Shown here piece after piece: positions 33,001 to 36,000 of a stretch of 64,000 nt of DNA (position 1 is its first letter; every line of letters begins with the position of its first letter). This stretch comes from an uncultured Gemmatimonadaceae bacterium (GTDB taxonomy: Bacteria > Gemmatimonadota > Gemmatimonadetes > Gemmatimonadales > Gemmatimonadaceae). The stretch spans positions 224,001 through 288,000 of the forward strand of contig CAWBOC010000009.1 of assembly GCA_963790305.1 (NCBI GenBank), given 5' to 3'. A program made the position numbers.

Positions 33001-36000
33001 GATTGCGGAATGCGGAAATGCGTTGGGGGACCATTCGAATCCGCATTCCGCATCCCGCATTCTCTCTCACTCGAGCAACTCGAGATCCAATTCCTCAATC
33101 GCTGCGTCTAACGCCGGATCTTTCTTCCGCAGCATCTGCGCGCGCTCCTGTCGGGCTTGATCCTCGGTGAGACGCTTCGGGGCATCGGCGACCGGCGTGC
33201 TGGGCTGCTCGACGCGCCGAACGACCACTTTCGTCGCACCATCGAAGGTGCCCGCGAGCGCGGCGATCACCTCTGCGGCGCCGCTTTCGATCGTCTTCTC
33301 GAAGATCTCGTTGGGTTTCTCGAGTTGAACGGTGATCGTACCATGCGCCGAGACGGCCACGGGAAGGGCGTGTTCGAGCGCTGACACGAGCATCGGGCGG
33401 CCCATCGATCGCACTCGGTCGACGACCTCTCCCCACCGCTCGCACAGAACGTTGAGGTCGAGCGCCGCACGCGGGGCGGGTTTGGGTGCCGGACTCGGGG
33501 CGTCGGCGCGTGGAGGGGGAACCGGCGATGGTTCCGCGCGGCGAGGCGACGGTCGCGGTGCATCCGGCACGCGGCGGCTCGTCGACGGCACGTTGTCTTG
33601 CGCGCCCGCTCCGCCACCGATGCCGCGCAGCAGATCCTCGAGCTCCACCGTGCGGTCGAGCAGCGCGAATCGCACCAGCAACGTCTCGAGCAGCAGCTGC
33701 TGTTGGGAGCTCTTGCGATAGAAGGGCTCGATCTCCGCGATCGCGCCGAGCATGCGGAGGAGATCAGGAGCCGTGAACCTGTCACGCCGGGCGCGCAGCG
33801 CCGCACGGGTTTGCTCCGACACTTCCGGTGCGTCGCCGCCGAGTGTGACGGCGAGCTGCGCGCGCAGGAGATCAGCGAGTCCGGCGAGAAAGACGGCGAA
33901 GTCGATGCCCGACTCGGCGAGGCGTCCAACCGCCGGAAAGACGTCGACCGCCCGCCGCTCGGCAATGAGCTCGAGGAGGCCGAGGTATTCGTCCTCGGGA
34001 ACGAGGCCAAGTGCGCTCCGAACGGCGCTCGCCGTGAGGCGGCCCTCGCCCATCGACAGAACCTGATCGGTCAGTGAGAGCGCGTCGCGCATGGAGCCGT
34101 CGGCCGCGCGGGCGATCATCGCCAGCGCGTCGTCGTCAGCGCCCACCCCTTCGGCCGCCAGTACGGTCATGAGGCGCTCGCGCACTTCCGCGGGCGAGAT
34201 GCGCTTGAAATCGAAGCGCTGGAGTCGGCTCATTACCGGCGCCGCGGCCTGCGTGATACGCTGCGGGTCCGTCGTCGCGAACACGAAGATCACTCGCGGC
34301 GGCGGCTCTTCGAGAATCTTGAGCAGCGCGTTCCATGCCTCACGAGTGAGCATGTGCGCTTCATCGACGATGTAGACCTTGAAGCGCCCTTCGGCCGTCG
34401 GGGCGTACATTGCGCGCTCGCGCAGCTCACGCGCGTCGTCCACGCCCCGATTGGAGGCGGCGTCGATCTCAATGACGTCGAGGCTCGCCGAGCCGCTCCA
34501 GATCCGGGTGCATGAGGCGCATTCCCCACAGGGCTCCCCCTCCGGAGCACCACGCTCGCAGTTCAGCGCCATCGCGAGAACGCGGGCGAGCGTCGTCTTC
34601 CCGACGCCGCGCGGCCCACACAGGAGATACCCATGCGCCACGCGCCCGCGCGCGATCGCTCCCTTCAGCGTGTTCGAGACGTGCGATTGCACCGCGACGT
34701 CGGCGAAGCGCTTGGGGCGATACTTCCGGGCGAGAGCGAGATACATGGGGGCGAAAAAACGGGGCGGGAGGAGGGGCCGCTGAGAAGATACGCCGCCGAA
34801 ATGGAAACGCGCGAGCCCGGACGATAGTCCGGCGCCCGCGCGAGTGCCTCAGGTCTTACGGGGCAGCGTCCACCACACATACCGCTGCTACCTGCGGGGT
34901 CCTGACGGGATTAGTGAGCTCGCGCCCCCCGGGACCTGAGGCACTCTAAAGCTAGTCGGTCGCGCGCGGGGGTTCAACTCAGGGGTTGTCGAGGTCGTCG
35001 AGGTGATCGAGGAGAGGCAAGGACGTTCCTCGATCACCTCGACACCCTCGACCACCTCGATCACGTCATTTGCTCAAGCACCTCCGCAACGACCGTCGCA
35101 GCCTGCCGTACCGCGCTCTCGCCGACGTCCAGGTGGGTCACCGCGCGAATGCGCGACGACGACCAGGGCGTCAGGAGCACGTCGCGTCGCGCGGCCTCGG
35201 CCACTACCGCGAACGCGTCGATCGAGCGTGGCAGGTCGAGCATCACGATGTTGGTGTCGGGAGGAACGACGTGTGCGCCGGCGACGCCGTCGACGATCGA
35301 CGCGTAGACCTTCGCCGTCGCGTGATCCTCGACGATGCGCGACAAGTGGGCCTCGAGCGCATGAAGCGCCGCCGCGGCGAGGATTCCCGACTGCCGCATG
35401 CCGCCGCCAAAGCGCTTGCGCACCGACCATCCCTCCGCGATCAGGTCGCGCGGTCCGGCAAGCGCGGCACCGACGGGGCAGCCGAGCCCCTTCGAGAACG
35501 ACACCATGACGGTGTCGGCGATCGAGGCGAGGGTGGCCAGTGCTTCGCCGGTCGCCGCGGCCGCGTTCCAGAGGCGTGCACCATCGAGATGCACGGGGAG
35601 GGCATTCGCGCGCGCGACGGTCGCGATCTCGCGCATGGCGGCAAGCGACGTCACCCGCCCTCCAGCCCCGTTATGCGTGTTCTCGAGACATGCGAGTGAC
35701 GCGCGCGGCACATGAGGCGACGTCGGTCGAATCGCGGCCGACAAGGCAGCCGCGTCCATGACGGGATTGCCAGCAACGGGCCGCACCTGCACACCGGCAA
35801 GCGCGGCGGCACCCGCCACCTCGTAATGCAGGATGTGCGCACCGGCATCGAGCAGTATTTCGGTCCCCGGCCGCGAGAGAAGCCACACCGCGGCCTGGTT
35901 CGCCATCGTGCCGCTGGGGAAGAAGAGCGCGGCATCCTTCCCGAGCAGATCGGCGACGCGTTGCTCCAGGCGCCGGGTAGTCGGATCGCCGTCCAGCACG

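Follow-up and report, generated by a model that had tools for sequence, protein, structure and literature searches.

In textbook accounts of bacterial protein targeting, FtsY is tethered by the tetraloop of signal recognition particle (SRP) RNA. What, then, is to be made of an SRP RNA gene whose apical loop has five bases? Such a gene had been flagged by a first-pass annotation of an uncultured Gemmatimonadaceae bacterium, within the stretch of 64,000 nucleotides analysed here (the window: positions 224,001–288,000 of contig CAWBOC010000009.1), and the locus raises the questions of whether the RNA is a genuine SRP RNA, how its loop might fold, and how widely such loops occur.

The gene (ffs, 34844–34944, minus strand) would specify a 4.5S-type RNA forming one long hairpin, and is present in a single copy. 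In an Rfam search, 34845–34940 matched the bacterial small SRP RNA model RF00169 over its full length (model positions 1–97 were all matched; 39.6 bits, E 3.6e-6). This lies just below the gathering score of 40 bits, which is a curators' threshold and not a structural feature, and many pentaloop orthologues score above it; scores near or below the cut-off explain why such genes are missed in annotation. No other match to RF00169 was found at E≤1 in the 4.3 Mb, 94% complete genome, ruling out a second canonical SRP RNA there; ffh and ftsY are intact and both lie outside the SRP RNA locus, and 34844–34944 is the sole SRP RNA candidate. The predicted fold has a free energy of −55 kcal/mol (z −3.88), and none of 200 shuffled sequences was equally stable. 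The earlier identification as SRP RNA is thus upheld by the full-length match, the fold and the lack of any other match in the genome, and we take 34844–34944 to be the cell's ordinary, single 4.5S SRP RNA, presumably functioning as such.

Read from 34944 to 34844 on the minus strand, the RNA contains ...GTCAGG ACC CCGCA GGT AGCAGC..., in which the apical loop of helix 8, CCGCA (34893–34897, from sequence and fold), is closed by the stem ACC/GGT (34890–34900 with the loop). The three stem pairs around the five bases have pair probabilities of 0.82–0.84, no competing short register of this apical hairpin exceeds 0.1, and the stem covaries among relatives (CCC/GGG, GCC/GGC, TCC/GGA), so the pentaloop and the covarying closing stem reported by the first-pass annotation both stand. 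Around the apical hairpin, the RF00169 alignment places the symmetric internal loop CAGG/AGCA (34886–34904), the site of the Ffh M domain (role as given in the available text of PMC5807370). The RNA therefore has the helix 8 CAGG/AGCA loop, the apical stem and the long hairpin of bacterial small SRP RNAs, together with an asymmetric-loop AA that is invariant in 55/55 aligned RNAs, and lacks the typical GNRA apical tetraloop. Also invariant in all 55 is a G at 34864 (minus strand), the candidate equivalent of E. coli G83; the single-sequence fold pairs this G and bulges the neighbouring U instead. We take G83 to be the distal-site base of E. coli 4.5S RNA, in name and in role.

Downstream and on the same strand are dnaX (33067–34746), the first gene after the RNA, and ybaB/ebfC and recR (32047–33070), in agreement with the earlier placement of the RNA upstream of dnaX; dnaX follows the SRP RNA in 22 of 23 true, published loci with the same order and with flanks, and in 3/3 Armatimonadota loci tested. 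A possible sigma-70 promoter, TTGAAC-N17-TAGCTT (34949–34977, minus strand; recognized by eye, 7/12 and below the scanner's threshold), precedes the RNA, and a TAnnnT box occurs in 37 of 58 SRP loci when 16 bases are examined in each. After the RNA comes a GC-rich hairpin (34808–34842, minus strand), which from its sequence may be a terminator or a processing stem; a promoter and terminator scan of the locus called neither. Further upstream are a palindromic repeat (34976–35065, no strand assigned), outside the SRP RNA and with about 92 related copies in the genome, and a PLP-dependent, threonine aldolase-like gene (35061–36176, minus strand). The palindrome may belong to a REP-like family or represent a small mobile element, and a weak match to an Rfam microRNA is put down to chance. 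Beyond recR, in the same direction, are an mglB-like gene and a gene for a small GTPase (mglA-like) at 30579–31763 (minus strand).

How general is the pentaloop? Two samples were surveyed, neither of them random, and related genomes within them are not independent. The first comprised 141 genomes of the phylum, 124 of them in class Gemmatimonadetes; after removal of two unpublished genomes and two in which no SRP RNA was found, 120 remained, of which 105 have pentaloops and 15 tetraloops (loops outside the search pattern were read from Rfam-located loci). All but one of the 120 were located by Rfam, the exception (G104) having a rearranged form of Longimicrobiaceae type. The second consisted of 80 further genomes picked to add genera and examined by pattern match only (one extra chance match was excluded), giving 58 pentaloops and 12 tetraloops among 70 matches. 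Altogether, 163 of the 190 class genomes with readable SRP RNA have a pentaloop. Rfam matches were obtained in 136 of the 141 phylum genomes, 116 of them above the cut-off (a tally that includes one unpublished genome), so SRP identity is no longer limited to the nine loci for which it had previously been confirmed.

The pentaloop is therefore the majority state of the class, as had been proposed from a smaller count. That count had set 26 GGAA loops against 77 pentaloops, and ours differs: within the class GGAA occurs in only 2/120 and 2/70 genomes of the two samples, and ten more cases belong to another class of the phylum. The remaining class tetraloops are GAAA, TAAC, TAGC and GAGA, while the classes outside Gemmatimonadetes have, besides these ten GGAA loops, TGAC or TGGC (3, these being URRC loops) and TGAT (3), with none found in one genome. 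The TGAT (URRU) loops sit on a stem with a T-C mismatch. In the genera with GAAA the symmetric loop region is also altered (CCAGG...AGCAAC), and three other loci read GTGAGG where GTCAGG is expected. Sequencing error, already discounted in the first-pass annotation, was ruled out as the source of the window's loop, CCGCA being found in 30 of the 120 class genomes of the first sample (CCGAA is in 20), and also in a genome of the same genus (G169).

An isolated report of such a loop was already in print. The entry 'CCGAA loop: Gemmatimonas aurantiaca' appears in PMC4091067 (2013), with reference to Rosenblad et al. 2009; the paper also describes URRC loops as 'widespread' and gives AA and URRU loops for other bacteria, so the claim that the window's loop replaces a universal GNRA tetraloop cannot be maintained. 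G. aurantiaca belongs to the same class as the window genome and has the same type of loop; there it is a one-line, single-species exception, whereas here the feature extends over the class, in several loop types and with reversions and covariation. In literature coverage that fell short of most subscription papers, we found no class-level treatment of the Gemmatimonadetes SRP loop; as far as we searched, the class-wide isosteric grammar, the reversions and the convergence described below are new, the pentaloop itself being already known.

The grammar of the class pentaloops is strict. Ten sequences occur in all, and loop lengths are four and five only. In all 163, base 3 is G and base 2 is a pyrimidine, and at position 4 all but one have C or A (162), the exception having U (CCGTA); of the earlier pattern N-Y-G-M-M, the invariant middle G holds and the strict M at position 4 does not. 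Bases 1 and 5 are C-A (74), U-C (51), G-A (35), C-C (2) or U-A (1), and never G-C (counts for the second sample were tallied by hand). By the available text of PMC8450098, a trans sugar/Hoogsteen (tSH) U-C pair is isosteric with the sheared G-A pair, AC, CC and UA fall in the same isosteric set, and G-C never forms a tSH pair, which suggests that the 1–5 pairs of the class can replace the sheared G-A of GNRA loops. On a tree of Ffh plus FtsY (FastTree, 100 genomes, 73 of them pentaloop taxa), loop positions 1 to 5 change 8, 15, 0, 10 and 3 times by parsimony. The joint state of positions 1 and 5 takes 9 steps (11 if they were independent), that of 4 and 5 takes 13 (13 if independent) and that of 1 and 4 takes 16. 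Position 5 thus seems to change with position 1, and position 4 on its own, though the events are few (three changes at position 5).

There are structural precedents for such a loop. GNRNA pentaloops adopt a GNRA-like fold from which base 4 is extruded (available text of PMC9830547), n4–n5 insertion variants have been solved and UMAC loops are GNRA-like forms (available text of PMC12550061), and the UAAC loop of the class is itself a UMAC loop in the sense of that excerpt. In what is accessible of these two papers, GNRNA and UMAC loops (boxB and CRISPR RNA among them) resemble the class loops in having a purine at position 3, a variable position 4 and a non-canonical 1–5 pair. Only 35 of the 163 class pentaloops are of GNRNA type, which needs G1, a purine at 3 and A5, and the window's CCGCA, beginning with C, falls outside it by sequence and can be likened to these loops only by analogy. 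From the isosteric 1–5 pairs, these precedents and the covariation of positions 1 and 5, we infer that the window loop probably adopts a GNRA-like fold in which base 4 is flipped out, and that it still tethers FtsY; the data thus favour what the first-pass annotation had entered as a caveat, namely a GNRA-like fold with one base extruded. Bases 1 and 5 would pair in the sheared (trans sugar/Hoogsteen) manner, with bases 2, 3 and 5 stacked. Nearly the same phosphate surface would then be offered, allowing the pentaloop to hold FtsY transiently, by electrostatic contact with Lys399, and so to speed Ffh–FtsY assembly. Some features fit this less comfortably: base 4 is held to C or A more tightly than a free base should be, and the window loop starts with C, C-A being the commonest 1–5 pair, while the accessible literature on GNRA-like loops yielded no solved CNRNA hairpin.

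Might the loop be folded in another register, with bases 1–4 as a four-base loop and base 5 bulged, or with a C-A wobble closing a loop of three? The ribosomal L39 loop GUAAG does fold like GNRA with its fifth base bulged (available text of PMC6326782), and GUGAA, GUGAT and GGAAG would fit such a scheme. On the other hand, position 1 is tracked by position 5 and not by position 4, in keeping with the 16 steps needed for 1 and 4 against 9 for 1 and 5, and GUGCA and GCGCA, having G and C at positions 1 and 4, cannot form a sheared pair; we regard this register as very unlikely.

Of 137 FtsY loci, 110 were fetched and 108 read (of the other two, one subsequently also showed Lys and one could not be resolved). 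With residues numbered from the full-length E. coli chain, Lys399, the tether residue (PMC4091067), is present in 108/108 (79 pentaloop, 15 class tetraloop and 14 outgroup genomes). Arg402 is present in 79/79 pentaloop genomes, and Lys406 is replaced by Arg in 50 of these 79 and in 0/14 outgroup genomes. Residues 402 and 406 presumably belong to the same surface as Lys399. No FtsY column separates pentaloop from tetraloop genomes, the best difference being 0.48, which bears out the earlier failure to find a covarying FtsY residue; Lys406 itself was rejected as a candidate because 26 pentaloop genomes keep it and no column tracks loop length. Conservation of Lys399 is only suggestive of tether use, because GNRA loop and lysine are uncoupled in green-algal plastids (PMC4091067) and the mammalian loop is conserved without a role in tethering FtsY (available text of PMC6781444).

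The plastid comparison raises the possibility that the loop no longer recruits FtsY and is drifting. Plastid SRP RNAs have apical loops of 1–11 bases (PMC4091067), atypical ones being longer than four bases, as here (PMC4091067 and excerpts of PMC5115805), and some nine changes of loop length on our tree, with ten pentaloop sequences, might be read in the same way. But the plastid loops in these sources are A/U-rich and variable, and some lineages lack Lys399, whereas the class loop is tightly constrained: G3 is constant, the 1–5 pair stays within one isosteric set, lengths other than 4 and 5 do not occur and Lys399 is invariant. Drift is accordingly hard to credit.

Could the extra base instead be a new recognition element for some lineage-specific residue? 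Such a residue is found in Ffh (106 of 110 loci read, one unpublished genome being dropped), at the position of E. coli Met408 in the M-domain helix-turn-helix, where 75 of 76 pentaloop genomes have Arg and 0/15 outgroup genomes do; the basal tetraloop genome G103 has Thr, and a Ktedonobacteraceae genome with a pentaloop also has Arg. The near-restriction of base 4 to C or A could be accounted for in this way, and looped-out pentaloop bases often contact proteins (available text of PMC12550061). Yet Arg is retained in 13 tetraloop revertants, one pentaloop genome (G126) has Thr, and both Armatimonadota genomes with CCGCA lack Arg (they have Met and Ser). Moreover, Ffh changes at several further residues along the same long branch, so Arg may be a plain class marker, and such a recognition element seems unlikely. 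One genome (G079) has two ffh matches, possibly through contamination.

In E. coli and the window genome alike, the RNA is a hairpin with a CAGG/AGCA loop, a three-pair apical stem and a distal G, FtsY has Lys399, and Ffh has the SMT/SR..RIA.G.G motif. They differ in the loop, CCGCA in place of GGAA, and in FtsY, which in the window genome has about 310 aa counted from its likely start, seems to lack a long, acidic A domain and looks like a short NG-only form. Its gene (C9:17894–20728, minus strand) shares one 945-codon stop-free frame with an upstream membrane-protein gene; this could reflect a missing stop or an assembly slip, and several relatives also have long open frames.

On the Ffh plus FtsY tree, CCGCA is the ancestral pentaloop, and the apical loop would have gained its extra base early in the class. 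Nine changes of loop length are needed, of which one is the gain and about eight are reversions to a tetraloop. GGAA is found in 3/3 genomes of family f9, one of which (G103) branches first in the class; since the node excluding G103 is poorly supported (0.41), the extra base may already have been acquired at the class root, f9 then being a reversion. Returns to TAAC and TAGC fall within the UYGCC clade, and those to GGAA within the GYGMA clade, mostly keeping the closing pair, while GAAA, which arose from CCGMA clades, and GAGA, which arose inside the UCGCC one, break that rule; in all, four kinds of reversion depart from it. The exchange of CCGCA, GUGAA, UCGCC, GAAA and UAAC while Lys399 is kept would mean that shape is selected, and not the GNRA sequence as such, and the class supplies natural variants for testing this, including how URRC loops work.

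Outside the class, we scanned 185,579 species genomes (GTDB) with a GTCAGG/CC..GG/AGCAGC core pattern, which excludes RNAs with G after AGCAGC. It gave 29 matches, of which 11 had an RF00169 match, two were of the Longimicrobiaceae form and 16 were treated as chance. CCGCA was found in a Chthonomonas, an Armatimonadota, and in a further bacterium with the same RNA body; single instances were GTGAT in a Ktedonobacteraceae SRP RNA (55.7 bits) and TAACC in a planctomycete one (44.1 bits). TAACC and CCGCA fit the 1–5 grammar of the class, and GTGAT does not fit G-A or U-C closure; Lys399 of FtsY is kept in all four of the pentaloop genomes tested outside the phylum. Of 131 Armatimonadota genomes, 47 matched the pattern, and a pentaloop was present in none of them but the centre genome. 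In the CCGCA RNAs of this kind (L311, L312, L317) the loop sits on a body native to Armatimonadota, and the apical stem has an A-A mismatch at its base. That an entire RNA was transferred from Gemmatimonadetes was ruled out, since the body resembles the GGAA-loop RNAs of its own phylum; a short patch may have been transferred. From the yield of the scan and this native body, it appears that pentaloops are rare elsewhere, within the set scanned, and that CCGCA has probably arisen twice. A metagenome scan gave five matches, one of them an SRP RNA with the loop GGAAG (a single contig, possibly an error), and a viral scan gave 17, none SRP-like by eye (three put to Rfam had no match). Looser patterns, applied to 301 genomes and to 131 genomes of the planctomycete phylum, were swamped by chance matches and no counts were derived from them.

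By itself, the pentaloop adds modestly to what had been remarked in print; the form found in Longimicrobiaceae (family f8) matters more. Here the CCGCA core is present in 52 of 60 published genomes, and in 28/28 loci examined it lies between tRNA-Glu or tRNA-Met and tRNA-Val, sometimes only two bases after the upstream tRNA. The element is 78–79 nt long and was missed by the Rfam search; it comprises helix 8 on an 8-pair stem and then, with no spacer, a second hairpin with one bulged G (for example L398:1462–1539, minus strand). In 32 sequences (genome G310 was missed by the extraction pattern), pairing holds in 99.2% of cells, and both sides have changed in 6 of the 26 pairs, two of them in the second hairpin, figures that kinship inflates. 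Counted from the AGCAG motif, the bulged G lies at 25 nt in 32/32; the distance is 24 nt to the unpaired G83 in E. coli and 25–28 nt to the invariant G of canonical class RNAs. Five of these genomes, two of them single-contig, had no other RF00169 match at E≤10, and 5/5 loci examined had no SRP-like RNA upstream of dnaX.

In this RNA helix 8 is unbroken, and the two ends meet within the distal helix, giving it the look of a nicked 4.5S RNA of permuted topology. Chances are about even, in our estimation, that the gene moved from dnaX to a tRNA operon and was rebuilt in this form, in which helix 8 and the second hairpin would stack end to end across the nick, the second hairpin would supply the distal bulged G that activates the GTPases (a distal RNA base has this role in the available text of PMC5454536), and tRNA-processing nucleases would release the mature RNA. 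Contigs from soil and biocrust RNA runs span tRNA, RNA and tRNA, which fits co-transcription, though they may derive from DNA. No circular joint between the RNA ends was seen in contigs of four RNA runs, which cannot show ends; joints skipping the RNA, in low-depth contigs at relaxed identity, were read as other organisms with adjacent tRNAs. Against a profile of canonical RNAs, rotated sequences gained no more than about 1 bit over the linear form, and alignment was confined to the core; the second hairpin may therefore have formed anew and not be old sequence that has moved.

The nearest likeness is the permuted SRP RNA of Thermoproteus (available text of PMC4731332), which also escapes canonical searches, has its ends inside the usual structure and is linked to tRNA processing. 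There the RNA is archaeal, the only permuted SRP RNA that we found, and its ends are at the tip of helix 8, while the Longimicrobiaceae form is bacterial, with its ends in the distal helix and no circular joint seen. We found no bacterial SRP RNA of such architecture in the literature searched, and the available text of PMC7203096 has nothing on a Longimicrobiaceae SRP RNA. If the permuted reading is true, Gemmatimonadetes would be a natural experiment in SRP RNA design with a new bacterial SRP RNA architecture, one that tests whether movement from tetraloop to distal site needs a long continuous helix; 'missing' bacterial SRP RNAs can then be rearranged ones. In one of the genomes (G332) a second SRP core, of GGAA type, lies on a separate contig (C5:103657–103678), possibly through contamination, and in most of the five loci inspected by eye a promoter-like TTGA..-TATATT motif, resembling that of ffs, still stands before dnaX.
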